Below are positions 4,346 to 22,183 of a stretch of DNA of 64,000 bases, piece after piece (positions within the stretch are counted from its first letter, which is position 1; the number at the start of each line of letters is the position of its first letter). A program made the translations under genes and the position numbers. The notes beneath the pieces are model-generated. The model saw only the letters and a program-made list of their open reading frames with translations, was not told where the DNA came from and did not search any database. This DNA comes from Bacteroidia bacterium (lineage in GTDB: Bacteria; Bacteroidota; Bacteroidia; M30B66): the NCBI GenBank assembly GCA_965279035.1, contig OZ257142.1, forward strand, positions 160,001 to 224,000, written 5' to 3'.

Positions 4346-7300
4346 TTATTTCGCGATAGTCAAGCGACCAACACTACGGAAGTTTTTGCTGTCAATAGAA
4401 ACTTCATAAACTCCATTAGCTAAACCATTGATATCAAGTTCAACGATAGCACCAGAACGAAGGTTAGTCAAGTTGTGTTTGTTAACTAAACGTCCAGCAG
4501 CATCAGTAATACTGATTGTAGCTTGAGCATCTTTCAAGTCAACATTTAACAACAATTTAGCAGCTTCGTTAGCAGGGTTAGGATAGATAGAGAATCCTTT
4601 GCTGTTGCCAACATTTGCAATTCCAGTTGTATTGTCTGTTACAGATACTACAGAAGTTGCAGTTGAAGAACAACCACCGCTCAATGCAGTAAGAGTTACA
4701 GTGTAAATACCTGGTTGCATGTAAGCATGAACTGGTGTAGCAGAAGTAGTTTCAATTGTACCATCTCCAAAGTTCCAGATGAATTCAGTTGCACCAGGAG
4801 CTGTTGCAGCAAATTCAATAATTGCATCAGCAAGTTGAACTGTGTTAGATGATGCGATAAAGCTTGCTGGAGAAAGAACTCCTGAAACTCCGATGTTAGA
4901 AGAAAGACTAAATACGCTTCCATCAACATAAGACATATCAACTGTGTAAGAACCTGAACTTAGGTTTTGGAAGATATGCTCACCTACAAACTGACCAGAA
5001 TTCGATACCGTTTCACCATTGTTGTTTTTCAACACTGCAGTCATAGGGTAAGCCATGTTGCTGTTGCTAACAATCAATTTACCGTTTGTTTCGCCAACAC
5101 AAGTTGAACTTGACGCCATGTTTACTGGAGCCATGAAGTGTAGACGGAAACGAACACCTTGGAATGAAGGATCGGTAGTGAACGTGTAGTTCGGATTGCT
5201 GTTTAAGCCTTGGAATGTTCCAGTAGCACGGTCTTCTAAGAACACGCGTGTTGATGGATCAAAGTCAACATACTCAGTCATCGAAATTGTGTATTCACCA
5301 TTAGTAGTCATTGAAGTACCTAGGTCAACAATACGAGTAGCCTGAAGTGGGCTGAACATTTGAATTACTAGATCTTGATTATCCAATTTAGAATAGATAT
5401 CGAATCCAGTAGTTCCAGGCATACGTGGAGAATCTTCACCACCTACAAACTGATCAGAAGATGTTTCAGAGAAAGCAACTACAGTGTTTACTGCTGTTCC
5501 AACTGAATTTTTCAAGTCCAAACGAACCAAAGAAATGTTAGAAGTAACATCAAAGAACTGTGTGCTATTTACAGGGTATGTAGGAACACGGTCTTCACAA
5601 CTGAATGTGATATCGTTTGTGTTCTGAACATCTGTCATGAAAGCTTGACAAGCACCTAATTCAAGGGCTGCAACACTATATCCAGAAGGAGGAGTTCCAC
5701 CAGCTGCAAGGTTAGAGCTATTGATTACTACATAATCACCTGTTGAGAAAGGAATGTTTCCAGATTGATTCCATAAGTAGATAGAACCAAGTGTACCTGA
5801 ATTTGTTCCGCGAGCTCTTAACTCATTAATCTTCAATGAAGATGGGAATGGGTTACCAATTAAGTTGAAGTTATTTGCTCCAGTAATTGTTGGAGTATAA
5901 TCGAAACTTACTTGGTTAGGTAGACCATTGAATACCACATTACCATTACCAGCATACGTTTGAATGTAACCACGACCAATTTGCATTGCAGTTGATGGTG
6001 ATAGTGCAGTACCCCAACCTAATTGTACGTTAGCACCAGCTCCAGGAGCAGTGTTGTTGTAAGTGTAAAGGTTACTTCCGTATGAAGTAGCAAGACACGT
6101 TGTATTTCCGTTTGATATTGGAGAAGACCAATAGTCATACATACCATACACAGAACCGCTACGACGATAAATGATAGAACCATTTACAGTACCACCGTAA
6201 TTGTAAGAAGGGTTTGTTGTTTTAACACCACCTGACAACAATACTGAATTGTTGATGAATGATAATTTACCATTCGAATTCAATTGAGCATTGGTTTTAA
6301 CACCTAAAGCACCTTCAATAATGATTTGATATGAAGTAGAAGGAGTGTTGATGTTGTGAATGTTATACAATGGATTCACATTCGTATTCACGAATTCAAG
6401 AACCCCTGTACCAGCAACATGTGGATTAGCCAAGATGAATGGATTTCCTTGAGCTGAAACGAAACCACCGCGTTGTAAAGAAGAGTTGATTCTCAATTTC
6501 GCAGCTGGATCAATTGTAATTCTAGCTGCATTCGCTGTAAGCGTATTGTAGTAGAAATTGATACCGTGTACGTCTTGAGTTCCAATTACATAAGGGTAGT
6601 TGTTTGTAGCAGACTGGGGAATGATAATCGATTTGCTGATTGAAGGTAGGATACCTGTTGTAGTTAAATCTCCACCATACCAGTTAGAAGGATTTAAGAA
6701 CACATAATCTCCAGCATTACCTGACCAGTAAAGACCGCTCATTACTAACAGTTTGAAGAAACCTACTGGAGGAGCAATGTTCGCTTGACGACTACCTACA
6801 CGAATGAATACATTGCTACCTGGAGTAAGACCAGAAGCAGAAACATATGTATGACCATCAACACCATTGAACGCATCACAACCTAATTGAGTCAATGTAC
6901 CAGTACAAGTACCATCACTTGAAGAGTAAATGGCAACTACAGTACTATCCAAATCGAATGTTGTAACAGCATTATTTGCATCGAACGTATAAACATGGAT
7001 ATCTCCTGAAGCAGGAATCACTGATTTATACCAAACATCTGATTTTAATAGAGTACACAAACCAGCCAAACTACCTGTGATAGGAGCTCCAAGGTTTGTT
7101 CTGTTAACAACAGAAGCTAAGCTCGCAGGAGGCGCATCCAATACAGTTACAGAAGCTGCATTACAAATTTGGTCAGTTACAACTGAACAAACGTTAACTG
7201 GCAATGTAAGTGCGTTACTTTGACAACCTGTACCAGGGTTTGTTACTTTAACTGAATACACACTGTTGTTGAAAGGAGCTGCATAAACAGTACTTACAGG

Positions 7301-10300
7301 AGTGTTGGCAACGTATGCTGATGAAGCAGCAACATCATTGAACAAACCACCAGCAGGAGAGAAAGAGAACTGTGGAGTAGAGATTGTCTCGTTCACTTGA
7401 ACGTTATCAACGGCTACCCAATATCCCCACTCAGAATAATAAGAGAAACGTATACGGAAGTTAGAAACACCACCAGCATAAGCTGCAGGAGGAATTGTAA
7501 CAGTCATCGTTTGGAAATCTCCCAAAGTAGTAGGAACATCTGTTGCATCAGATAAAACGCTGGCTGCAATTGGTGTCCAAGTTAAATTGTCTGTTGAATA
7601 CAATACTTGGAATACATCTGCAGGATAAGCGTTGTATGATACATCATACGTTAACACAACTGAAGTAGCAGCAGAACTAATGCTGATTGAAGCGTTTGGA
7701 GAAGTTAAGGTAGCTGTAGCTCCAGAACTGCTTGCTCCTTGAGCATCACCGATTGCTACTGCAAATGAACCTGTAGAATTAAACGTTTGAGGATAACCTG
7801 GATAGGTATATGCCGGAGGTGCAGACGGGAATGTCCAACGAGATAATGCACCAAGAACTTCAGCAGGAACAACTTGTGTGAACGCTGTTTGCCATCCAAG
7901 ACCAGCACCGAATGCGAAGTCGTCGAAGAACAAGGTCGTTACCAATGGAGTTGCAGTTGCATTGATCTGTACCGGAGTAAACGTACCGTTTGTATTTGGA
8001 CAGAACGTAATTGGACTTCCTGAAGGAATTGAAGTAACACTTGTTGGTGTAGCCGGTTTAGGATTTACACGTACAGTTATCGTTTTAGAGTTAGTACAAC
8101 CCAACGAAGTAACACCATTCACTGTATACGAGGTAGTTGTAATAGGAGAAACACTAACACTGCTTCCTACAACCGGACCAGGAGTCCAAGTATAAACATA
8201 CGTTAAGTTGGTACTGCTCACTTGAAGTGTAGTAGCATCACCTTCGCAAATTGAAACAGAAGTTGTTGGTGTAGTAGAAATACTAGGAGCAGCAGTTACT
8301 GTAGCAGTAACCAATGAACGAACACTTGAACAGCTTTTTTCAATTTGCCAGTTGTATAAGTTATACCAGTAAGAAGTACTACCTACCCAGTTGTCGGTAA
8401 ATGTTACATTGTTTGATGGAGTACCATAGTAACCAGCTGCACCAGCTGAATTTCTCAAACAAACCGGTCCAGTTACGTATACCAATTGCCAATCAGTTCC
8501 AACTGGAACATCAAAATTCAATGGAACAGTTAAAGGAGTTCCTACAAAACTTCCTGTTGAGTTAGCGTCACCAGCAGTAATAACTTGAGAATACGATAAT
8601 ACCGTATTACCTAAGTTATCTTGAAGTTCGATTTGTGCTGTACCAGCAGCTGTCGGAAACAAATCAATAGAAAGGATTTTAACCGGAGCAGATGTAGTAA
8701 ACACTTGGTAAACACCATTGAAACTCGTTCCGAAAGAACCAATTGCCGGGCTAACTGCACCTGAAGTTCCAGAACCTAGGATAGTGAATGCTTCAACATA
8801 ATAATTCGTTGAACTTGGGCCTGGCAATGTAGCTGTAGCATAAGCAACTCCTGAAGTTCTAGTTGCCAATAATGTACCTCCAGTAGAAGCATCATAATAG
8901 CGAAGATCTGAACCGGCAGAAGATGTAGCATTTAGGTTCACAGAACCAATACCGCAACGAGTACCATTGGTTACACCCAAAACTTGAGGATTGTATGCAG
9001 TGATTGCAATAGTAGAAGATGTAACTTGAGTAGTTCCGTTACATTTTACTTCTACATCGTAGTTACCAGAGAGTGTAACAGGTAAAGAAACAGAAGCAGA
9101 AGTTTGAGGAACTCCAAATGCAACTCCATTTCTTCTCCACTGATATGTAATACCTAAACCAACTGGCATTGGTACAGTAATACCAAAGTTAACTGATGAA
9201 CCAGCACAAACCGAAGTTGGTGAAGCAGTTGCAGCAGTAGCAGGGAAAGGCAATAATGTAGAGCAGTTTGGTGGAGGAAGAATGGTTACAATGTAATCTT
9301 CAGTTTCACCATATCCACTTGAACTAGCGCCACATGCTTGGTTGCTAGACAATTGGCTATCGTTACCACCACGAACGCGCATACGAAGGTTTCCTGTAGA
9401 ACCAGCAATTGGAACTACGATACTAATTGTTGAAGTACCGCCACCACCTGGTGAAGTTGTAGAACCAAAGAATTCTGTTGTTGCAAATACTCCATCATTA
9501 TTAAAGTCAATCCATACACCTAAATACTGATTTCCATCAGATCCAAATGTAGCAGATAGATTATACGTAGAACCTTGAAACAAATCCGGTTTATTAACTG
9601 CGCTGAAGTAGGTGTAATATGGACTCGCTGAACAACCTGAAGAATTTGACAAGTTGATTGAAGCACCATTCATAGACACGTTAGTGATTTCATCACCTGA
9701 GCTACAACCTGAAGAATACGTAGGAGTACAATAATCGATATAACGATTACCAGCAGGATCCACATCAGCAGAAGGTTGAGAACCTGTAGCAGTTGCACCA
9801 CCAGCAGCTGTAAATGACATATCGCCAGCTACAATTTTAGCATCTACCAAGTTTCCGATAACAGCACCCGCAGATGTATTTACACGTAACCATAGGTAAC
9901 TAGTTGCACCAACACTTACACTTAAACCAGTGAAGTTAACTACACCAGCAGCTATTGTTTGGCTTGTACCAATTTGAGCAGTAGGTGCAGCACTTGTACC
10001 TGTCCAAAGAGAAACTCCCAATGCCGCGATATCAGCAGAGCTAACACCAGTGTATGTGAATTTAGCTTGAGTTAAGGTAATTGTACCAAGTGATCCAGTT
10101 GTAGAAAGATCAACACGTAACAAATTGTTGTTAGTTGAAGAAGCTCCCATACCACCTGTTTGTTGAACAGAAGTAATAGCATTTAATGAACGAGGTGTTG
10201 GAGATGCTATAGTTACACTATAATCAACAACAGTTCCGTAGTTAATTGGATTCAAGCATACGTCTGTTTGAACGAACGTTGTATTATAACGGTTCATTAC

Positions 10301-13300
10301 ACGCATACGACAACCAGGCCCAGTAAAAGCAAGAGGATCTATTGTTACACCTAGCGTACCTGATGAACTAGCAGCAGTTGTTCCTGCAGTACCAAAAAAC
10401 TCACCTGCATCTAAGAAGTCACCATCGCGGTTAAAATCGAACCAGATACCAACACCTTGAGCACCACCTGAACCTGTTGTAAAGTTAGCCGTGTAAGCAT
10501 TTCCTTGTTGCAAAGTAGTAGTAGCTGCATTTAACGCATAATTATTAGGTAAAGCACCTGGACAATTTGGCGTAGTACTAATTGTATTCAAGCTGAATGC
10601 TGTTAAATAATCTAAACTAGAACAAGCATTAGTAAATACTGGTAAGCAATAATCGATTAACACATTACCTGCATCAGAAATAGTTCCAGCTGTAAGCGAA
10701 TTTGTTGCACCACCAGCTAACGTAAATGTTAAGTTGGTTTTGTCAAGAGTTAAGTCGAGCGTATTTCCAATAATTGCAGTACCTGAAACATTGAAACGTA
10801 CCCAGAAATAATTTGAACCGGAAGCTATGTTTGTAGTTAATCCAGTAAAAGAAATCTGACCTGCAACAACACTTACCGCACCACCTATTTGAGCAACAGG
10901 AGCACCAAAAGTACCAGTCCACAAAGTAGCTGAAGTAATTTCCGATGGAGCTGCAGTACCTGTAAAGTTGAAAATACAATCTGTAAGGGTTATCGTTCCA
11001 GTAGATCCAACAGATTGGATATTCATACGAGTTTGGTTCACGTTAGTAGCACCAACATTTGTTGTAGCAGAAATAGCAGCAACTCCGGTTTGGTTTATAC
11101 TAACAGCAGCAACATCTAAAGGACCCGTTTGACCAAAAGCAATACGATCAGGGAAGGTGGAAGCAGCTAAAACTGGAGGAGGGTTTGCTAAGAATGCACC
11201 AAGTGGAACTGAACCAGCATTAAAAGTTGATCCTGAGCCTAAAATAGAGAAATCAGTTGCAGGCGATTGGATACCCACAAGTGTATTTCCAGAAACCATG
11301 GCTGCATCGTGCCCTTGAACACTATAGGAAACAAAGTTAGCAGATCCACTAGCGATACTAGTAACCCATTCTCTGTTCGGATTAAGAGAAACAATTCCAA
11401 TAAATGTATTTGGAAGACCTACTGAGTTGTTTGTTTCTGCTTGAATTGAAACTGGACCACCTGCATTTGTTGTAGCATTAAAAATTGCTAACCAATTAGA
11501 GGCTGTTTTACCAACTGGCAACCAAGCAGTAAAGTTGGTTGAGCTTGCTGGTATAACACGAATCATTGGTCCTGAAACATAACCAGCAGTTGTAGCGCCA
11601 GTAAAGGTATTTCCAGATGTTGTTGACTTATGAGTTAAAATATTGGTCAACGTTGTATTTACTTTACCTGCATTTAATGTAATTGAACCAGTTACAGATA
11701 AAGGAACGTTTAAAGTAACACCTGTAGCATTTGAATTTTGAACAATTAAATTGGCCAAATTACCTGTTGGAGATGCCGTGAGGTTTTGAATAGTACCTGA
11801 TCCACCAATAGTTTGTGCTCCTGTTGCATTAGAAAATACTAAACTAGATACATCCAAGAAACCTGCAGTTATGAATCCCAAGGTTCCAGATGTAGTCAAA
11901 GTTCCATTAACTAAAATACTTCCCGCAACATAGGGAGAAGCAATGCGGCTATCACCTCCAGTGTTGATTGTGAAATCACCTAAAATGGGTTGTTGGTAAG
12001 TGCTTGTTACAAAACGATTTGTTCCTGTTGGACCATTAACAATAACATTTCCAAACACCATACCTGTTGTAGAAGACCATGTGTTAACATTCCAAGCAGT
12101 AGCACTTGCGGCAGTACTTGATGTACCATCACCGAAACGGATTGTATGACCTGATGTTACATTCACATTTCCATTAAGACTACCACTTAAAGTAATTGTA
12201 TTAACTGCATTTGCAGGTGGATCAATAAATGTTAAAGTTCCTCCTGTAAGATTTACAGAAGTTAATGAAGACACATTCAGATTAAACAATACTGAACTCG
12301 TAGAATTTGCTGTAACGTTATTTGCATTACCATCTACATTAAAGTTACCACCTGATTGATTTAAAATCATTCCAGAAGTGGTAGCTAAATTTCCTGCAAG
12401 ATTAATAGTTCCACTTGATAAGTTTAACGTAGAACCATTTCCAAGATTTAATGTCCGGTTACAAAATGAATTGTCTTGAGGTCCAATGTTAATAGTACCT
12501 CCGCTTACATTCAATACACCTCCTGCTCCTAGTGAGATTCCTGTTCCTGAAGCTCCAGTAACTGTTAATGTATTACCAGAAACTACTAAAGTACCATTCA
12601 CAGCTACAGTAAGAGCAGCTGCGGCTGCAGCGTTTACAGTAACAGTAGTTCCTGAAGTAATTAATGGATTATCAGAAGATGTTGGAACCGAACCTGTTGA
12701 CCAAGTAGAACCAACATTCCAAGCAGCGCTAGCCACCGAATATAATCCGATATCGGCAGTATTGATACCCAAATACTGAGAACCAGAAAATGGAGTACTA
12801 GCTGCACCCGTAAATGTTCTACATCCAAAAGGAATTGCAGAAGTACCAGTTGCCGCCAAATGAGTTCCTGCTGCAGCGCCTACTTGCATAATGCGAGGAG
12901 CTGTTGAAGGAGCCGCAGCTGTTACAATTAAACCATCGCCACAGAGTGCCATGTGGATATTTCCTGTTGCTGTGTATCCGCCACCAGAGGCAAATAACCA
13001 TAAAGAGTTAGTTCGTTGGCTTAATACATAAGCCCCATCTGTATAACCATCAGCAGTTAATCCAGCCGTATTGGTATGAGTACATTCTACCCAACCAGCA
13101 ACGTTTGTAGATCCTGTTGTGTTTCTGTTTAAACGAACCATCCTAGAGGATGTACCGCTTACCATAGGGAAGAAGTTGGCTGTTGCAGAAGCTGCCGTAG
13201 TAATTGTAGTTGTTGTTACCCAACGACGAAATGTAGTTCCAGAAGCAAATCCACCAGAAGTCCAAGAAAGAGTTCCTGCAGAAGCAGTAGAAATACCTTG

Positions 13301-14494
13301 AATGAAGGTATTTGTAGAATTAATTAAACCTTGTGTAAACGTTAAAGTTCCAGAAACAGTACCTGTACTAGTACCACTCAAAACCGAATTGGCATTTAAA
13401 AAAGTAACACCACCCGTACTATTATTATTAACTGTTAATCCTGCAAAGTTCGCAGTTGGTGAAGCAGCTAAGTTACGGAATGAACCAGAACCAGTAATAG
13501 ATTGAGCTACAGTAGCTGGAGCCAAAGTTCCAGTTCCAGAACTGTTTGCAAAGGCAAATGTACCTGTAGTTGTTAATGTTCCATTGACAACCGTATTACC
13601 AGCAACTGAAAGTACACCAGTATTTCGGTAATCACCAGCTGTGATAGTTAGATCTTTTTGTACACCAACATATTGAGTAGTATATTGTTGTGTAACCAAA
13701 GTACGGTTACCAGAACCAGCAATATTGATAATTAAATTACCATATAATACGCGAGTTGAACCTACATATGTTTCTTGAACAAAACCACCTGTATTGGCAG
13801 TTGCATCGGTAGAAACACCATCACCCAATTGGAAGGTGTGATTCACACCAAGAGCCATACTTACAGAACCTAAATATGCAAATGCTCTTCCTAATGAATT
13901 ACTATTCACTACGTGGGGGTCAACAATGATGATTGATCCACCAGTAAGGTTTAGGTTAGTTGCAACTGAAGCAGTAAAACCAACAATGTTAGTTCCGGAA
14001 GCTACTGAAGTAGCAACGTTTCCATTGTCATTACCATCTACCTTTAATGTTCCAGCAGATTGGTCAAAACGACCACCTGAAGCAAGAGTAAAGGCACCAT
14101 TTACGATTACCGTTCCACCTGTAAGGTTGAAACGACCACCTGAGTTAATAGTAAAAGCAGAGTTGAACTGTGCTGCAATAGCAACAGTAAGGGTATTCGC
14201 TCCAACATTTAGTGTTCCAGCATTGATTACCAATGAACGAACAGAAGCGCTTCCCGATAAAGTCATTACAGAACTATTCTGAATAACGAAATCGTCAGCA
14301 TTGGAGATTGAACCTGGGTTGGTACCAGATAAACCATTTGTTGCAGTTACCCAACTTGCGACATTGTTAAAGTCTGTTGCAGAGGGGACCGAGTAATACG
14401 TGGTGGCTTGGAGCCAGCCGACCATCAAGAGAAAGATCCCCGTCAGGAGAAAACTTTTTCTTTGCCGGCGAAACAAATGTGTAGTTGTTTGCAT
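4346..14494 (-). CDS. Giant (3382 aa) T9SS type A surface protein/adhesin: duplicated beta-rich N-terminal modules, two GEVED domains, Ig-like domains, PKD, CTD
   Basis: Signal peptide; GEVED motifs (IWFDFNRDGDF...GTVVDY; VWIDFNNDGVF...GETEDY); Ig-like RCGIGSV.L.A...YY; PKD FIWNFGDG...HAY..PGIYTVTL; IYPNPA...GVYEV CTD; S/T/G/A-rich composition. Confidence 0.88.
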   Translation of the reverse strand: MQTTTHLFRRQRKSFLLTGIFLLMVGWLQATTYYSVPSATDFNNVASWVTATNGLSGTNPGSISNADDFVIQNSSVMTLSGSASVRSLVINAGTLNVGANTLTVAIAAQFNSAFTINSGGRFNLTGGTVIVNGAFTLASGGRFDQSAGTLKVDGNDNGNVATSVASGTNIVGFTASVATNLNLTGGSIIIVDPHVVNSNSLGRAFAYLGSVSMALGVNHTFQLGDGVSTDATANTGGFVQETYVGSTRVLYGNLIINIAGSGNRTLVTQQYTTQYVGVQKDLTITAGDYRNTGVLSVAGNTVVNGTLTTTGTFAFANSSGTGTLAPATVAQSITGSGSFRNLAASPTANFAGLTVNNNSTGGVTFLNANSVLSGTSTGTVSGTLTFTQGLINSTNTFIQGISTASAGTLSWTSGGFASGTTFRRWVTTTTITTAASATANFFPMVSGTSSRMVRLNRNTTGSTNVAGWVECTHTNTAGLTADGYTDGAYVLSQRTNSLWLFASGGGYTATGNIHMALCGDGLIVTAAAPSTAPRIMQVGAAAGTHLAATGTSAIPFGCRTFTGAASTPFSGSQYLGINTADIGLYSVASAAWNVGSTWSTGSVPTSSDNPLITSGTTVTVNAAAAAALTVAVNGTLVVSGNTLTVTGASGTGISLGAGGVLNVSGGTINIGPQDNSFCNRTLNLGNGSTLNLSSGTINLAGNLATTSGMILNQSGGNFNVDGNANNVTANSTSSVLFNLNVSSLTSVNLTGGTLTFIDPPANAVNTITLSGSLNGNVNVTSGHTIRFGDGTSSTAASATAWNVNTWSSTTGMVFGNVIVNGPTGTNRFVTSTYQQPILGDFTINTGGDSRIASPYVAGSILVNGTLTTSGTLGFITAGFLDVSSLVFSNATGAQTIGGSGTIQNLTASPTGNLANLIVQNSNATGVTLNVPLSVTGSITLNAGKVNTTLTNILTHKSTTSGNTFTGATTAGYVSGPMIRVIPASSTNFTAWLPVGKTASNWLAIFNATTNAGGPVSIQAETNNSVGLPNTFIGIVSLNPNREWVTSIASGSANFVSYSVQGHDAAMVSGNTLVGIQSPATDFSILGSGSTFNAGSVPLGAFLANPPPVLAASTFPDRIAFGQTGPLDVAAVSINQTGVAAISATTNVGATNVNQTRMNIQSVGSTGTITLTDCIFNFTGTAAPSEITSATLWTGTFGAPVAQIGGAVSVVAGQISFTGLTTNIASGSNYFWVRFNVSGTAIIGNTLDLTLDKTNLTFTLAGGATNSLTAGTISDAGNVLIDYCLPVFTNACSSLDYLTAFSLNTISTTPNCPGALPNNYALNAATTTLQQGNAYTANFTTGSGGAQGVGIWFDFNRDGDFLDAGEFFGTAGTTAASSSGTLGVTIDPLAFTGPGCRMRVMNRYNTTFVQTDVCLNPINYGTVVDYSVTIASPTPRSLNAITSVQQTGGMGASSTNNNLLRVDLSTTGSLGTITLTQAKFTYTGVSSADIAALGVSLWTGTSAAPTAQIGTSQTIAAGVVNFTGLSVSVGATSYLWLRVNTSAGAVIGNLVDAKIVAGDMSFTAAGGATATGSQPSADVDPAGNRYIDYCTPTYSSGCSSGDEITNVSMNGASINLSNSSGCSASPYYTYFSAVNKPDLFQGSTYNLSATFGSDGNQYLGVWIDFNNDGVFATTEFFGSTTSPGGGGTSTISIVVPIAGSTGNLRMRVRGGNDSQLSSNQACGASSSGYGETEDYIVTILPPPNCSTLLPFPATAATASPTSVCAGSSVNFGITVPMPVGLGITYQWRRNGVAFGVPQTSASVSLPVTLSGNYDVEVKCNGTTQVTSSTIAITAYNPQVLGVTNGTRCGIGSVNLNATSSAGSDLRYYDASTGGTLLATRTSGVAYATATLPGPSSTNYYVEAFTILGSGTSGAVSPAIGSFGTSFNGVYQVFTTSAPVKILSIDLFPTAAGTAQIELQDNLGNTVLSYSQVITAGDANSTGSFVGTPLTVPLNFDVPVGTDWQLVYVTGPVCLRNSAGAAGYYGTPSNNVTFTDNWVGSTSYWYNLYNWQIEKSCSSVRSLVTATVTAAPSISTTPTTSVSICEGDATTLQVSSTNLTYVYTWTPGPVVGSSVSVSPITTTSYTVNGVTSLGCTNSKTITVRVNPKPATPTSVTSIPSGSPITFCPNTNGTFTPVQINATATPLVTTLFFDDFAFGAGLGWQTAFTQVVPAEVLGALSRWTFPSAPPAYTYPGYPQTFNSTGSFAVAIGDAQGASSSGATATLTSPNASISISSAATSVVLTYDVSYNAYPADVFQVLYSTDNLTWTPIAASVLSDATDVPTTLGDFQTMTVTIPPAAYAGGVSNFRIRFSYYSEWGYWVAVDNVQVNETISTPQFSFSPAGGLFNDVAASSAYVANTPVSTVYAAPFNNSVYSVKVTNPGTGCQSNALTLPVNVCSVVTDQICNAASVTVLDAPPASLASVVNRTNLGAPITGSLAGLCTLLKSDVWYKSVIPASGDIHVYTFDANNAVTTFDLDSTVVAIYSSSDGTCTGTLTQLGCDAFNGVDGHTYVSASGLTPGSNVFIRVGSRQANIAPPVGFFKLLVMSGLYWSGNAGDYVFLNPSNWYGGDLTTTGILPSISKSIIIPQSATNNYPYVIGTQDVHGINFYYNTLTANAARITIDPAAKLRINSSLQRGGFVSAQGNPFILANPHVAGTGVLEFVNTNVNPLYNIHNINTPSTSYQIIIEGALGVKTNAQLNSNGKLSFINNSVLLSGGVKTTNPSYNYGGTVNGSIIYRRSGSVYGMYDYWSSPISNGNTTCLATSYGSNLYTYNNTAPGAGANVQLGWGTALSPSTAMQIGRGYIQTYAGNGNVVFNGLPNQVSFDYTPTITGANNFNLIGNPFPSSLKINELRARGTNSGTLGSIYLWNQSGNIPFSTGDYVVINSSNLAAGGTPPSGYSVAALELGACQAFMTDVQNTNDITFSCEDRVPTYPVNSTQFFDVTSNISLVRLDLKNSVGTAVNTVVAFSETSSDQFVGGEDSPRMPGTTGFDIYSKLDNQDLVIQMFSPLQATRIVDLGTSMTTNGEYTISMTEYVDFDPSTRVFLEDRATGTFQGLNSNPNYTFTTDPSFQGVRFRLHFMAPVNMASSSTCVGETNGKLIVSNSNMAYPMTAVLKNNNGETVSNSGQFVGEHIFQNLSSGSYTVDMSYVDGSVFSLSSNIGVSGVLSPASFIASSNTVQLADAIIEFAATAPGATEFIWNFGDGTIETTSATPVHAYMQPGIYTVTLTALSGGCSSTATSVVSVTDNTTGIANVGNSKGFSIYPNPANEAAKLLLNVDLKDAQATISITDAAGRLVNKHNLTNLRSGAIVELDINGLANGVYEVSIDSKNFRSVGRLTIAK

Positions 14495-18157: not shown

Positions 18158-18418
18158 ATGGCTCGATTAAACATCAAGTGTAAAGAAGCCACAGCCTTGG
18201 TTTTGAAAAAGGAGAGTAGTTCTCTTCCTCTTCAAGATCGATTCCGCTTATGGATGCATTTGATCATTTGTTCCTGGTGCCGTTTGTTTGTGAAACAAAA
18301 TCGAATGCTTCACACAGCCATGAGCCAAGAAGGGCCGCATGTGAAGCTAGATCCTGAATTCAAGAAAAAGATAGAGGAAAGCCTGGGGCGGGGGGGCTCG
18401 GACTTACCCTCGGACTGA
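18158..18418 (+). CDS. zf-HC2 (zinc-binding anti-sigma-like) protein; stop codon lies inside a palindromic repeat
   Basis: CKEA...HLIICSWC (H-x3-C-x2-C), directly after the ECF sigma gene. Confidence 0.85.
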   Translation: MARLNIKCKEATALVLKKESSSLPLQDRFRLWMHLIICSWCRLFVKQNRMLHTAMSQEGPHVKLDPEFKKKIEESLGRGGSDLPSD

Positions 18419-18492
18419 AGTCCGGGGTTGCTGGGGGGGGGAGAGCTGAATTTTAGATGCGGTGATGGGCAGCCTCGGACTTCAGTCCGGGG
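18397..18492. repeat. REP-like inverted doublet: palindrome 18408-18427, 45-nt spacer, inverted palindrome 18473-18492, plus a partial copy at 18397-18405
   Basis: CCTCGGACTGAAGTCCGGGG ... CCTCGGACTTCAGTCCGGGG; spacer is homologous to those flanking the HUH gene. Confidence 0.9.
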
Positions 18493-20393
18493 GTTTTTGA
18501 CGAAATTGATAGAGCTGTATTATAAATAGCATCTGCATCGTAGCCGCATTCAGCCCAGAGTTCGGGTTGTGTGCCATGTTCCACAATGCTATCGGGAATT
18601 CCAAGTCGTTTTACGCGGGCAGAATATCCATGATCAGCCATAAATTCTAAAACGGCAGATCCGAAACCACCTTGAACGCAGCCATCCTCAACAGTAATGA
18701 TGTATTTGTAGTGTTTGAAGATAGTATGAAGCAATTCTTCGTCGATGGGTTTTACGAAACGCATATCGTATAAGCCAACGTCAAGGCCATTTTCAACCAA
18801 ACGATCAACCGCTACAGAAGCCATATTTCCCATGTGGCCAATGCTTAAAATAGCAAGGTCTTTTCCTGTACGCAACGTTCTTCCTTTCCCAATTTCGAGA
18901 AGTTGAAGTGGTTTTTTCCAGTCTATCATCACTCCGTTTCCGCGTGGATAACGAATACTGAATGGTGCTGGCGTTTTGTAAGCGGTGAACATGAGATTCC
19001 GAAGCTCTTCTTCATTCATAGGAGCAGAAACAATCATGTTGGGTATGCAGCGCATGTAGGCAATGTCATATGCACCATGATGCGTAGGTCCATCGGCACC
19101 CGCCAATCCACCGCGATCGAGGCAAAATACAACATGCAAATTTTGAATGGCTACATCGTGAATCACTTGATCATACGCACGTTGCATGAATGAACTGTAA
19201 ATATTACAGAAGGGAATCATACCTTGTGTAGCCAAACCTGCAGAAAAAGTAACGGCATGTTGCTCACAAATCCCCACATCGAAAGCACGATCGGGAATTT
19301 CCTTCATCATAATATTAAGCGAACAACCCGAAGGCATTGCAGGTGTAATTCCAACAACTCGCGCATCTTCTTTTGCTATCTCAACTAAAGTATGACCGAA
19401 AACATCTTGGTACTTAGGCGGTTCTGGTCCTTTTTTGGGTGCTTTAATTATTTCACCCGTGTCTTTATTGAATAATCCCGGAGCATGCCATAATGTTTGG
19501 TCTTCCTCAGCAAGCTTGTATCCTTTGCCTTTCACCGTAAGCACGTGCAGAAGTTTAGGTCCGGGAATGTCTTTGAGGTCATTCATCACCTGAACCAAAC
19601 GATTCACGTCATGTCCATCAACCGGTCCGAAATAGCGGAAATTCAATGATTCGAAAAGGTTGCTTTGCTGAAGAACAGCACTCTTGATTGCATTTTCTAC
19701 CTTTTGAACGATGGCTTGAGCATTCGGTCCAAACTTGGAGATTTTCCCAAGCAGATTCCACACTTCATCTTTCACACGGTTGTAAGTGTGTGAAGTGGTA
19801 ATATCCGTAAGATATTCTTTCAATGCACCAACATTGGGATCGATCGACATACAGTTGTCGTTCAAAATCACCAACATATTATTATTAGAAGCACCCGCAT
19901 TGTTCAAGGCTTCGAATGCCATTCCACCTGTAAGCGCCCCATCTCCAATAACAGCAATGTGTTGACGTTTGGTATCCCCTTTCAAATGTGAAGCGATAGC
20001 CATTCCGAGTGTCGCCGAAATAGATGTTGAACTGTGCCCAACTCCAAAAGTATCGTATTCGCTTTCTTTCCGTTTAGGGAAACCGCTAATTCCTCCGTAG
20101 ATCCGATTTGTATGAAATATTTCTCTACGACCAGTCAGCATTTTATGCCCATAGGCCTGATGTCCAACATCCCAAACGAGTTGATCGTCGGGAGTATTGA
20201 ATGCATAATGCAAAGCAACTGAAAGTTCAACTGTTCCTAGGCTAGCGCCAAAGTGCCCTCCTTTTACAGATACAATATCGATGATGTATTGACGTAACTC
20301 ATTGCAGATTTGCACGAGATCGTCTTCTTTGAATCGTCTTAGATCGGCAGGAGAGTCGATCTGAGCAAGCAATTCACCTGGAATAATGTTCAT
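18453..20393 (-). CDS. dxs: 1-deoxy-D-xylulose-5-phosphate synthase
   Basis: GGHFGASLG, WDVGHQAYGHK, GDGALTGGMAFEALNN, DVGICEQHA, DRGGLAGADGPTHHG. True start is ATG 20393; the ORF-track extension to 20564 is repeat DNA. Confidence 0.97.
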   Translation of the reverse strand: MNIIPGELLAQIDSPADLRRFKEDDLVQICNELRQYIIDIVSVKGGHFGASLGTVELSVALHYAFNTPDDQLVWDVGHQAYGHKMLTGRREIFHTNRIYGGISGFPKRKESEYDTFGVGHSSTSISATLGMAIASHLKGDTKRQHIAVIGDGALTGGMAFEALNNAGASNNNMLVILNDNCMSIDPNVGALKEYLTDITTSHTYNRVKDEVWNLLGKISKFGPNAQAIVQKVENAIKSAVLQQSNLFESLNFRYFGPVDGHDVNRLVQVMNDLKDIPGPKLLHVLTVKGKGYKLAEEDQTLWHAPGLFNKDTGEIIKAPKKGPEPPKYQDVFGHTLVEIAKEDARVVGITPAMPSGCSLNIMMKEIPDRAFDVGICEQHAVTFSAGLATQGMIPFCNIYSSFMQRAYDQVIHDVAIQNLHVVFCLDRGGLAGADGPTHHGAYDIAYMRCIPNMIVSAPMNEEELRNLMFTAYKTPAPFSIRYPRGNGVMIDWKKPLQLLEIGKGRTLRTGKDLAILSIGHMGNMASVAVDRLVENGLDVGLYDMRFVKPIDEELLHTIFKHYKYIITVEDGCVQGGFGSAVLEFMADHGYSARVKRLGIPDSIVEHGTQPELWAECGYDADAIYNTALSISSKTPGLKSEAAHHRI

Positions 20394-20502: not shown

Positions 20503-20721
20503 CCTCGGACTGAAGTCGGGGGGGATGGGGGGAAGGGAGCTGGAATATAGATAGGGCTGGACAACCCCGGACTGAAGTCCGAGGGTGCTGGGGGAAGGGA
20601 GCTAGATTTTAGAGAGGGAGATCTGCTGTCCTTGACTCTTATCGGATACCCCTCGGACTGAAGTCCGAGGTTGCTGGAGGGGAGGGTGCGGAATTTTAGT
20701 TAGGGTGAGCTGAAGTCCTGG
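20503..20721. repeat. Left array of REP-like palindromes (copies at 20503, 20565, 20651; degenerate copy ~20709) with G-rich homologous spacers
   Basis: CCTCGGACTGAAGTCGGGGG, CCCCGGACTGAAGTCCGAGG, CCTCGGACTGAAGTCCGAGG; spacer consensus ~KTGCTGGGGGGAAGGGAGCTGGATTTTAGATA. Confidence 0.9.
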
Positions 20722-20827
20722 GATGCGGGAGATGCAAATCTATTGCGTGTAATGCAAAAGGATGATAATAAAACAAGGCTAGATTTATACGATATATTCA
20801 TCAATAGTAAAATCAATATTAAATAGT

Positions 20828-21229
20828 ATGGGAAGAGTTACTGTATTTATTCATATCGTATTCAGTACAAAGTATGGGCATCGAATACTTACTGAGGAAT
20901 TGATTGAAACATTAAAACTCTATCTTAAAGATCAATCTATTTTAAAACCCTTTGAAGTAATCGAATTTAATGGTTTTGAAAATCATATCCATTGTCTAAT
21001 AAGCTGCCATTCGGGCATTTCTCTTCCAGATTGTGTAAAATGGTTAAAAGGGTCATCATCAAGATGGCTGAATCAACAATCCTATTTTAAGCATCATTTT
21101 AAATGGAAAGTTGGGTATTATGCTACGAGAATTCCTTCAACTGAATATGATAGGGTAGTTCGCTATATACAAAATCAACAGGTCACTCATTTAAAGCGTT
21201 TGGGAAAAGAGAAGCTGGCCCCGGACTGA
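20828..21229 (+). CDS. tnpA: IS200/IS605-family-like HUH (Y1) transposase / REP-associated tyrosine transposase
   Basis: HIVFSTKY N-terminus, HUH motif NHIHCL, LKGSSS, FKWKVGYY, catalytic YIQNQ; no tnpB nearby; flanked on both sides by palindrome arrays. Confidence 0.88.
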   Translation: MGRVTVFIHIVFSTKYGHRILTEELIETLKLYLKDQSILKPFEVIEFNGFENHIHCLISCHSGISLPDCVKWLKGSSSRWLNQQSYFKHHFKWKVGYYATRIPSTEYDRVVRYIQNQQVTHLKRLGKEKLAPD

Positions 21230-21432
21230 AGTCCGGGGGGTTGGGGGGAAGGGTGCTGAAATATAGATAAGGTGAGACGAAGCCTCGGAATGAAGTCCGA
21301 GGGTGCTGGGGGGAAGGGAGATGGATTTTAGATATTGTGCGTCGTATTCTCGGACTGAAGTCCGAGGTTGCCGAGGGAAAGGGAGCTGGATTTTAGATAT
21401 AGTGCGCAGCAGCCTCGGACTTCAGTCCGGGG
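21219..21432. repeat. Right array of REP-like palindromes (copies at 21219, 21283, 21348; inverted copy at 21413), period 64-65 nt
   Basis: Four 20-nt palindromes separated by 44-45-nt homologous G-rich spacers. Confidence 0.92.
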
Positions 21433-21433
21433 T

Positions 21434-22183
21434 TTATGAGAACCAGTTTGCCAGATCTTCAATACGCAATTGTTTTTTTGCATCACCCGAAACATCACGT
21501 ATAACCTGCCCTTCGGATAGTTGTATGATTCGGCTTCCGACCTGAATGCATTGTCGCAGCTCATGTGTTACCATGATTGCAGTGATTTTTTTTTCGAGTA
21601 AGATGCGCTGGGTGAGTTCCAAAATACGAGCTGCTGATCGAGGATCCAATGCTGCAGTAGGCTCATCTAACAATAATACATCTAAGGTGTCGAAGGTTGC
21701 CATGAGTAAGGAAAGAGCTTGCCTTTGTCCACCTGAAAAACTTCCCATGGGTTGATCAAGCCTGTTTTCTAAGCCCATAGCGAGGATGCTCACATGTGCA
21801 GAAACTACTTTCCGGAAAGCAGAATCAACTCCAATTCGCAATCCCTTGTTTTGAGTGCGTAATGATGCTAGTCGGAAATTATCGATCAACGAAAGATCAG
21901 GGGCTGTTCCAGCTGTTGGGTCTTGGAATATTCGAGCAATAGAAGCACTTCGTTTATAGCTAGGCAGTGATTGTATTTGTTTTCCGTTGATAGAAATGCT
22001 TCCTGAATCAGGTAAAAAGGAGCCTGCGATGAGATTGAGCAGCGTTGATTTTCCAGAACCATTCGACCCAACCATCACATTGAAGGAACCGACCTCTAAG
22101 GTTAGGTTGATGCTTTTTACAGCAATCACTTGACGTTCGGTGCCGGGGAAAAAAGTCTTGTTCAGATTCTTAATCTCAATCAT
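21434..22183 (-). CDS. ABC transporter ATP-binding protein (putative aromatic amino acid-type system)
   Basis: Walker A GSNGSGKS, signature FSGGQRQ, Walker B LLLDEPTAALDP, H-loop MVTH. Confidence 0.92.
   Translation of the reverse strand: MIEIKNLNKTFFPGTERQVIAVKSINLTLEVGSFNVMVGSNGSGKSTLLNLIAGSFLPDSGSISINGKQIQSLPSYKRSASIARIFQDPTAGTAPDLSLIDNFRLASLRTQNKGLRIGVDSAFRKVVSAHVSILAMGLENRLDQPMGSFSGGQRQALSLLMATFDTLDVLLLDEPTAALDPRSAARILELTQRILLEKKITAIMVTHELRQCIQVGSRIIQLSEGQVIRDVSGDAKKQLRIEDLANWFS

Follow-up and report, generated by a model that had tools for sequence, protein, structure and literature searches.

The domesticated bacterial transposases that are best known accompany repetitive extragenic palindromic (REP) sequences and are called REP-associated tyrosine transposases (RAYTs). 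To our knowledge, only proteobacterial enzymes of class 2 have been studied experimentally in REP/RAYT systems. Here, we analyse a stretch of 64,000 nucleotides from a Bacteroidia bacterium (contig OZ257142.1, positions 160,001 to 224,000; referred to as the window), in which the gene for a 133-residue Y1 nuclease of the HUH type is flanked on both sides by arrays of a 20-nucleotide hairpin. With moderate confidence, we read this as a REPtron-like locus, that is, a chromosomal, vertically inherited and probably domesticated HUH/Y1 nuclease for single-stranded DNA (ssDNA) flanked by its cognate REP hairpins.

The closest described group of enzymes is TnpA_Y1 subclass 1.2, for which Table 1 of Quentin, Siguier, Chandler and Fichant (2018; BMC Genomics 19:475) gives the motifs DH[IV]H, WQ and YIKNQKEHH, a median length of 148 residues, 1.7 copies per genome and 36% identity between copies. 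The group is presented there as low-copy and not of the insertion-sequence (IS) kind, occurs in Cyanobacteria and Bacteroidetes, and carries the entry ‘REP: no’. The automatic REP search of that study required a GT[AG]G foot, and a term search of its supplementary REP table found no rows for subclass 1.2. Our literature search, which did not extend to bioRxiv supplements or subscription journals, turned up no published account of REPs flanking subclass 1.2 genes, and the hairpin string of the window occurred in the searched literature only in unrelated papers. Bertels et al. (2017) described a ‘RAYT-like IS200 Group 3’, the IS200 group nearest to the RAYTs, which has no duplicates, is absent from plasmids and has abundant flanking 16-mers. 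We infer that this group and subclass 1.2 are the same, which runs counter to the statement in Quentin et al. (2018) that subclass 1.2 was not described by Bertels. For IS200/IS605 itself (subclass 1.1), Table 1 of Quentin et al. (2018) gives a mean of 4.8 copies per genome at 99.4% identity.

The window protein resembles subclass 1.2 in its Y---Q motif, its (N/D)H[IV]H form of the HUH motif, its core of ∼110 residues, its occurrence in Bacteroidetes as a low-copy, non-IS gene and the lack of a tnpB partner, and its nearest database relatives are all of the 1.2 type. It differs in lacking a conserved C-terminal domain of ∼30 residues, in reading Y---Q--TH and WK instead of HH and WQ, and in its surroundings: against the printed ‘REP: no’, inverted hairpins or modules are found at the window and at five other 1.2-type or allied loci. 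With the Escherichia coli rayT/TnpA(REP) REPtron (class 2, subclass 2.2; PDB entry 4ER8) it shares a single gene, REPs in inverted pairs (REPINs), a chromosomal location, vertical inheritance, the HUH/Y1 fold and, presumably, hairpin-guided cleavage of ssDNA. Unlike that system, it has Y---Q instead of Y---NP, its hairpins are without the GTAG foot, and they form head-to-tail arrays with a 45-nucleotide spacer instead of alternating bacterial interspersed mosaic elements (BIMEs); nor were the hundreds of dispersed copies seen for the window hairpin within 64 kb. The IS200/IS605 family (subclass 1.1: IS200, IS608 and ISDra2) provides the closest solved structures and has in common with the window protein the Y---Q motif, a short chain without extra domains, a glutamine that would complete the metal site, and subterminal hairpins as the recognition element. 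Here the differences are three to four hairpins per side instead of one, the absence of tnpB, a gene that is syntenic across divergent genomes, a position outside the sampled IS clade, and no near-identical copies found in the cluster search described below.

The nuclease and its hairpin arrays

The Y1 gene is an intact open reading frame (ORF). Pfam Y1_Tnp (PF01797) matches its product with an E value of 2.5e-23 (82.9 bits), and the score against NCBIfam NF033573 (transpos_IS200, the IS200/IS605 equivalog) is 67.7 bits with a cut-off of 55, whereas the score against NF047646 (REP_Tyr_transpos) is 29.4 bits, far under the cut-off of 80. The HIH motif occupies residues 53–55 and YIQNQ residues 113–117, and of the columns that are invariant in an alignment of 28 sequences the protein keeps all 13, including His53, His55, Tyr113, Gln117 and His121. 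Its full motif is YIQNQQVTH, with a Thr at the first His position of HH and the invariant His121 at the second. The C-terminal tail SFE.E...LL..H...YD..Y is missing; the chain ends 20 residues past Tyr113, inside a REP. According to a sequence search of the PDB, the only matches are IS200/IS605 TnpAs, with none to the E. coli RAYT 4ER8 at E ≤ 1. An AlphaFold2 model (mean predicted local distance difference test score, pLDDT, of 88.8) was most similar in Foldseek to the ISDra2 and IS608 TnpAs (E ≃ 3e-9, TM score 0.64–0.69), with 4er8 at rank 30 (E = 3.8e-6, TM score 0.65). Judged by its motifs, the protein is a class 1 enzyme (IS200-like, Y---Q) and not a class 2 RAYT (Y---NP).

The hairpin reads CCYCGGAC-TGAA-GTCCGRGG and is followed by NTGCTG. 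Searching both strands of the window for the 14-nucleotide core CGGACTGAAGTCCG with up to two mismatches gave 16 matches, which correspond to nine distinct sites; 100 shuffled sequences gave an expectation of 0.20 and a maximum of 2, so that none reached 16. There are 3.5 hairpin units to the left of the gene and four to the right (Table 1). Their start-to-start spacings are 62 and 86 nucleotides on the left and 64, 66 and 64 on the right, and the spacers are homologous, giving a unit of ∼65 nucleotides made up of the hairpin and the consensus ...GGTGCTGGGGGGAAGGGAGCTGGATTTTAGATA.... The hairpins are arranged both as head-to-tail arrays of this REP-plus-spacer unit and as REPIN-type inverted doublets. 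None of the bases directly 5′ of the hairpins (GAGC, ACAA, TACC, CTGG, GAAG and GTAT) forms a GT[AG]G foot. The inverted arms 20563–20590 and 21407–21434 are 96% complementary, and the region 21340–21440, folded as ssDNA, gives a REPIN-like long hairpin (−24 kcal/mol, z = −6.0). A second REPIN-like long hairpin (26-bp stem, −25.1 kcal/mol, z = −7.3) is formed by the detached doublet, which sits 2 kb from the Y1 gene, has a spacer homologous to those of the arrays and is the only detached site in the 64 kb.

Table 1. Coordinates of the Y1 gene, its hairpins and the adjoining genes (window positions).
Feature	Position	Strand	Remarks
Y1 HUH nuclease gene	20828–21229	+	Class 1 (IS200-like); His53/His55, Tyr113, Gln117
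Left array	20503–20722	+	Between the dxs start (20393) and the Y1 gene; G-rich spacer after each REP
REP(+) copies, left array	20503–20522, 20565–20584, 20651–20670	+	20503–20522 with one core mismatch
Half REP, left array	20707–20722		Loop and right arm
Right array	21219–21432	+	Its terminal doublet abuts the ABC ATPase stop codon (21434, −)
REP(+) copies, right array	21219–21238, 21283–21302, 21348–21367	+	21283–21302 with one core mismatch
REP(−) copy, right array	21413–21432	Inverted	REPIN-like doublet with 21348–21367
Detached REPIN-like doublet	18408–18492		REP(+) 18408–18427, 45-nucleotide spacer, REP(−) 18473–18492
dxs (1-deoxy-D-xylulose-5-phosphate synthase)	18453–20393	−	Pfam DXP_synthase_N, E = 1.6e-118; synteny anchor with locus L085
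ABC-transporter ATPase	21434–22183	−	Leads an ATPase–permease–binding protein operon; second housekeeping neighbour

No tnpB or iscB, integrase or other mobile gene was found among the 44 ORFs scanned in the window, nor was a second Y1 gene found there. A census of perfect hairpins in the window (30 with a stem of at least seven base pairs) revealed no other repeated hairpin family. The REP unit had zero matches to plasmids, and an Rfam scan gave only sub-threshold miRNA-hairpin look-alikes at the doublet, which we rejected as chance.

Several of the hairpins coincide with the ends of genes. The Y1 reading frame is closed by the TGA of a hairpin loop; its final four codons and this stop (LAPD*) are part of the REP at 21219. 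Likewise, the loop TGA of the detached doublet is the stop codon of an 86-residue ORF (18158–18418), and the last codons of dxs (...PGLKSEAAHHRI*) are encoded by the REP and spacer of the same doublet. In both of these convergent genes (18158–18418, and dxs at 18453–18500), the REPIN-like doublet appears to have taken the place of the 3′ end. One copy, at 18473–18492, is terminator-like, being followed on the + strand by GTTTTTG; promoter and terminator scans of the whole window gave counts equal to those of shuffled sequences (for terminator-like hairpins, 4 versus 3.6 expected). The hairpins probably double as terminators or mRNA-end structures. The REP-derived end of dxs lies past the last Pfam domain (residue 623 of 646), and the 86-residue ORF comes after an ECF (extracytoplasmic function) sigma gene.

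Most of what a first-pass annotation, made by a model from the sequence letters, had noted at this locus agrees with our analysis. It had described a 133-residue HUH/Y1 protein with HIH and YIQNQ, an IS200-type signature, no tnpB or iscB (the neighbours being dxs and the ABC-transporter ATPase), homologous spacers (they share GGTGCTGGGGGGAAGGGAGCTGGATTTTAGATA) and an inverted last copy (at 21413), and all of these were found. The RAYT-type repeat context that it proposed was also confirmed, with hairpins on both sides, REPIN-like doublets and housekeeping neighbours. The seven clear copies and one degenerate copy that it counted match ours in number, the degenerate one being the half copy at 20707–20722, but two of the seven have one core mismatch each. 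The period of mostly 62–65 nucleotides holds for spacings of 62, 64 and 64 nucleotides, but spacings of 86 and 66 also occur. It overlooked the inverted doublet at 18408–18492, the use of a loop TGA to end the Y1 gene and the lack of further copies in ∼60 kb.

A G-run tract, GGGGGGAAGGGAG, directly follows the hairpin in each unit (20523–20545, 20585–20605, 21239–21260 and the other spacers), and could perhaps fold into a G-quadruplex on one of the strands.

Recurrence of the pairing and relatives of the nuclease

We scanned genome contigs with an 18-nucleotide hairpin pattern and obtained at least 122 loci; the window's own genome is not among the matches listed. One of them, L085, covers the terminal part of a 48.9-kb contig from a Bacteroidetes metagenome-assembled genome (MAG), in which a Y1 gene adjoins dxs in the same position and orientation as in the window. 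The 5′ ends of the two dxs genes are 78.4% identical over 171 nucleotides, and 51 of 54 N-terminal residues are identical by manual count. The order in L085 is the dxs 5′ end, a REP doublet, the Y1 gene and a second REP doublet, with the same hairpins as in the window. Its Y1 protein has 123 residues, is 36% identical to the window protein and also ends in a hairpin loop (...HHSGPPD*). Finding the same dxs-side locus at 36% protein identity argues for vertical inheritance and long retention, which is the opposite of IS behaviour.

The gene–hairpin pairing recurs in other lineages. The hairpin is present in inverted orientation around 1.2-type genes of a Chlorobiales MAG (L059; NF033573 score 70.2 bits) and a Limisphaerales MAG (L072; 53 bits, just under the cut-off), although the 5′ end of the latter gene appears frameshifted. 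Among the matches listed, Chlorobiales bin-602 has the hairpin on at least four contigs. A 1.2-type gene of Persicobacter (L123) has two hairpins per side in inverted orientation, one with a C-TGAA-G loop; this module is found at 12 places in the 632-kb replicon versus one copy of the gene, and at five, one and 13 places in three other replicons, the last of these from P. psychrovividus. A 1.2-type gene of Bernardetia (L135), with TerC as one neighbour and an ABC ATPase as the other, is likewise flanked by inverted repeats, two modules on either side, whose stem is only 4 bp by manual reading. Both of these genes are on large Bacteroidota replicons. Overall, among the matches listed, a Y1 ORF lies beside the hairpin at only five distinct loci of 80 with 1.5-kb flanks and at two of 42 with 0.3-kb flanks.

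Three lineages of Y1 genes, namely canonical IS, 1.2-like and class 2 RAYT genes, have members next to the core CCCGGAC-TGAA-GTCCGGG, and the record titles of the matches listed come from well over ten phyla. These matches include at least 141 distinct sites, many of which group into families that are specific to one genome and have distinctive flanks; this makes the core a REP that recurs across many phyla. One core beside three Y1 lineages would point either to a very old shared hairpin recognition or to repeated capture by different enzymes, and bears on the single or multiple origin of RAYTs, a question left open by Bertels et al. (2017).

In three Verrucomicrobiota MAGs (L026, L071 and L072) a second hairpin, GATGC-TTTC-AGCATC, follows the first at a fixed distance, which suggests a two-hairpin composite repeat in that phylum; the Acidobacteriaceae loci have an analogous upstream partner, GCGGGTTTGAAAACCCGC.

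Relatives of the protein were sought among 5.8 billion clusters. No other protein among these has ≥90% identity; the protein's own 90% cluster holds one sequence on one contig (4,200,666 bp), a count in which identical copies on that contig would not show. There are only three close relatives (P0002–P0004; 70, 67 and 59% identity by BLASTP), and the remaining relatives have at most 41% identity, or at most 38% among matches covering ≥83% of the query. Y---Q--HH is found in 48 of the 56 distant matches (P0005–P0060), and the printed C-terminal ends of most of these 48 also show the conserved tail. The window clade (P0001–P0004), in contrast, has YIQNQ.(V/I)(T/N)H and WK or WG instead of WQ, and is tail-less. 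P0002–P0004 (also put at 55–69% identity) keep His53, His55, Tyr113 and Gln117 at the aligned catalytic columns, and their reading frames appear whole. By their peptide ends, P0003, P0004 and the more distant P0070 are consistent with a loop stop, while the C-terminus of P0002 reads through the hairpin in another frame (GLKSG). Further tail-less relatives (P0063, P0064, P0066 and P0070) have the motif F.W.VGYYA.R in common, and HH is kept in L085 and P0070. An exhaustive search of representatives gave 3460 matches with E ≤ 1e-3, 332 with E ≤ 1e-10 and none with E ≤ 1e-30. All 114 plasmid protein matches are below 60% identity, and only two plasmid records, one of them from Bernardetia, have a 1.2-type gene at E ≤ 1e-15.

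For the phylogeny we used a careful maximum-likelihood tree of 42 rows, consisting of 22 of the 56 distant matches, the four window-clade proteins, L085, L059, L123, ten plasmid TnpAs and three class 2 proteins; incomplete or aberrant rows (L072, P0057, P0058 and P0060) were dropped. The class 2 RAYTs (E. coli RayT, L038 and L028) split off with support of 100/99. A clade with support of 98/94 unites the ten plasmid IS200/IS605 TnpAs to the exclusion of the window protein, and the window clade groups with L085 at 95/96. A single clade of the window clade and the 1.2-type rows is neither supported nor rejected (approximately unbiased test, p = 0.43). With monophyly left at that, the window nuclease appears from its sequence to be a tail-less class 1 offshoot of the subclass 1.2 type.

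These results modify what the first-pass annotation had proposed for the history of the locus. In a TnpA(Y1)/RAYT phylogeny the protein stands apart from class 2 and from the sampled IS clade, but the independent origin that was suggested is not resolved by the tree. Amplification of the 65-nucleotide unit by the enzyme, which the annotation also put forward, stays a hypothesis. Homologues that are syntenic and flanked by palindromes exist, in the form of L085 beside dxs with the same hairpins, but this was shown for one syntenic genome. The idea of a newly seen kind of domestication has to be given up, since a low-copy, non-IS, IS200-like group had already been published (Bertels et al., 2017; Quentin et al., 2018).

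Among the best 150 relatives there are ∼25 proteins of 266–315 residues (P0061, P0062, P0065 and others) with two tandem Y1 domains. In the three that we read, domain 1 keeps HxH but has lost the catalytic Tyr, and domain 2 keeps Y---Q--HH; going by sequence, such a protein looks like a single-chain pseudo-dimer with one tyrosine. ‘Unexpectedly long proteins’ were discarded as fusions or errors by Quentin et al. (2018).

Weighing the explanations

The data establish the layout of the locus, the family of the enzyme, its intact catalytic residues, the synteny and the repeated pairing of gene and hairpin. As a REPtron-like system, the locus would work as follows, by analogy with the IS608 and ISDra2 TnpAs and E. 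coli TnpA(REP). The protein would act as a dimer and bind the hairpin on ssDNA, for example on the lagging-strand template, and would cut and rejoin it through Tyr113, with a metal held by His53, His55 and Gln117 (cf. Quentin et al., 2018, section 31). REP or REPIN units would be moved, deleted or duplicated, preferentially near the enzyme's own gene; this could account both for the arrays around the gene and for the doublet at a distance of 2 kb. The head-to-tail arrays could arise when a unit inserts at a target that is recreated at its own border, or by slippage, two routes that are not told apart. Some hairpins have come to lie on the 3′ ends of genes, giving the Y1 gene and the 86-residue ORF their stops and dxs its last codons.

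A number of observations weigh against this reading. No hairpin copy was found in the remaining ∼60 kb of the window, where none of the ∼40 other intergenic regions contains one; with every copy no more than 3 kb from the gene, the hairpin family may be small and local and not a dispersed REP population. The Bernardetia module, similarly, occurs at only two places in its 602-kb replicon. The hairpin also keeps other company. In Acidobacteriaceae its neighbours are RAYT genes of class 2 (L038, which passes the cut-off with 108.8 bits, and L060, partial and below it), and in Portibacter marinus it adjoins a class 2-type gene (L028/L029; 62.7 bits, below the cut-off). In a Nitrospirota MAG (L118) it precedes a tnpA of the canonical IS200/IS605 type by ∼70 nucleotides, and in Pseudomonas loci it has GTAG...CTAC feet. 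WK and TH stand in the window protein where subclass 1.2 has WQ and HH, and these changes together with the missing tail mean that the protein could be impaired. Finally, a quick tree placed the window clade beside the IS clade with a Shimodaira–Hasegawa-like approximate likelihood-ratio test (SH-aLRT) value of 94; the careful tree joins the two at only 59/5, and replaced the quick tree because long branches and the N-terminally incomplete L072 row affected the latter.

Several of these points would also fit an immobilized or decaying IS of the IS200 family, with slippage or recombination having duplicated the hairpin regions at its ends; the gene would then be a relic without host function, and the repeats would no longer be mobilized. 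The protein passes the IS200/IS605 equivalog cut-off, has the Y---Q motif and a TnpA-like length and fold, has lost the tail and altered WQ and HH, and was adjacent to the IS clade in the quick tree, and its repeats are restricted to 3 kb. We nevertheless consider this explanation unlikely. The intact ORF at the syntenic L085 locus, at 36% identity, indicates long retention at one place; the catalytic residues are kept and the frames appear whole in P0002–P0004; the 13 invariant columns are kept without exception; the careful tree puts the protein outside the IS clade; and the detached doublet shows that the unit reached another intergenic site.

More doubtful still is the possibility that the hairpins are mobilized by another enzyme encoded elsewhere, such as a class 2 RAYT, with the IS200-like gene as a landing site or bystander. 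In its favour, genes of the class 2 RAYT type have the same core beside them in both Acidobacteriaceae and Portibacter, and the core is a GTAG-type REP in Pseudomonas loci, but class 1 genes are flanked on both sides in four independent settings (the window, L085, L059 and L072), the hairpin, as read from the peptide ends, overlaps the 3′ end of the gene throughout the window clade, the sole Y1 gene in the 64 kb is the one described here, and the repeats cluster around it and are not spread. That the hairpins are host regulatory elements (terminators, mRNA stabilizers or insulators separating convergent or divergent genes) expanded by ordinary recombination, and that the adjacency of the nuclease is mechanistically meaningless, is very improbable: one copy is terminator-like and copies are placed exactly at gene ends, but terminator-like hairpins are no more numerous than in shuffled sequences, the others of this kind in the window are unique A/T-flanked stems, and the recurrent pairing with Y1 genes across phyla (the five distinct loci of 80 among the matches listed) is hard to explain without the enzyme.

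Going beyond the window, we tentatively propose that subclass 1.2-type class 1 nucleases, including the tail-less subclade, might be a second REP-associated, RAYT-like lineage, which would have escaped notice since REP searches look for a GT[AG]G foot that its hairpins do not have; we would not yet bet on this broader claim. A class 1 enzyme in a REPtron-like locus would mean that the IS200 branch itself gave rise to host-retained, repeat-associated nucleases in Bacteroidota and other phyla, and the published ‘no REP’ entry for subclass 1.2 would have to be corrected. A 133-residue enzyme without an accessory tail, together with a perfect hairpin of 20 nucleotides, would also be a small model for hairpin recognition and movement by Y1 enzymes.

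Neighbouring genes and upstream motifs

The window is chromosomal Bacteroidota DNA with a G+C content of 38.9% and contains several type IX secretion system (T9SS) sorting domains. An ECF sigma/anti-sigma pair is situated upstream of dxs. GC skew over the 64 kb did not assign leading and lagging strands. At 4349–14494 on the − strand there is a gene for a secreted protein of 3382 residues with GEVED, PKD, Ig-like and T9SS sorting domains, and further proteins with T9SS tails are dispersed across the window. Palindromic motifs rich in TGCAAA/TTTGCA are present upstream of both syntenic Y1 genes (20725–20765 in the window and 365–425 in L085), and in L085 a long palindrome, CATCAGGTGCAAA...TTTGCACCTGATG, is also found upstream of the Y1 gene; these motifs might serve the Y1 gene as an operator or promoter.

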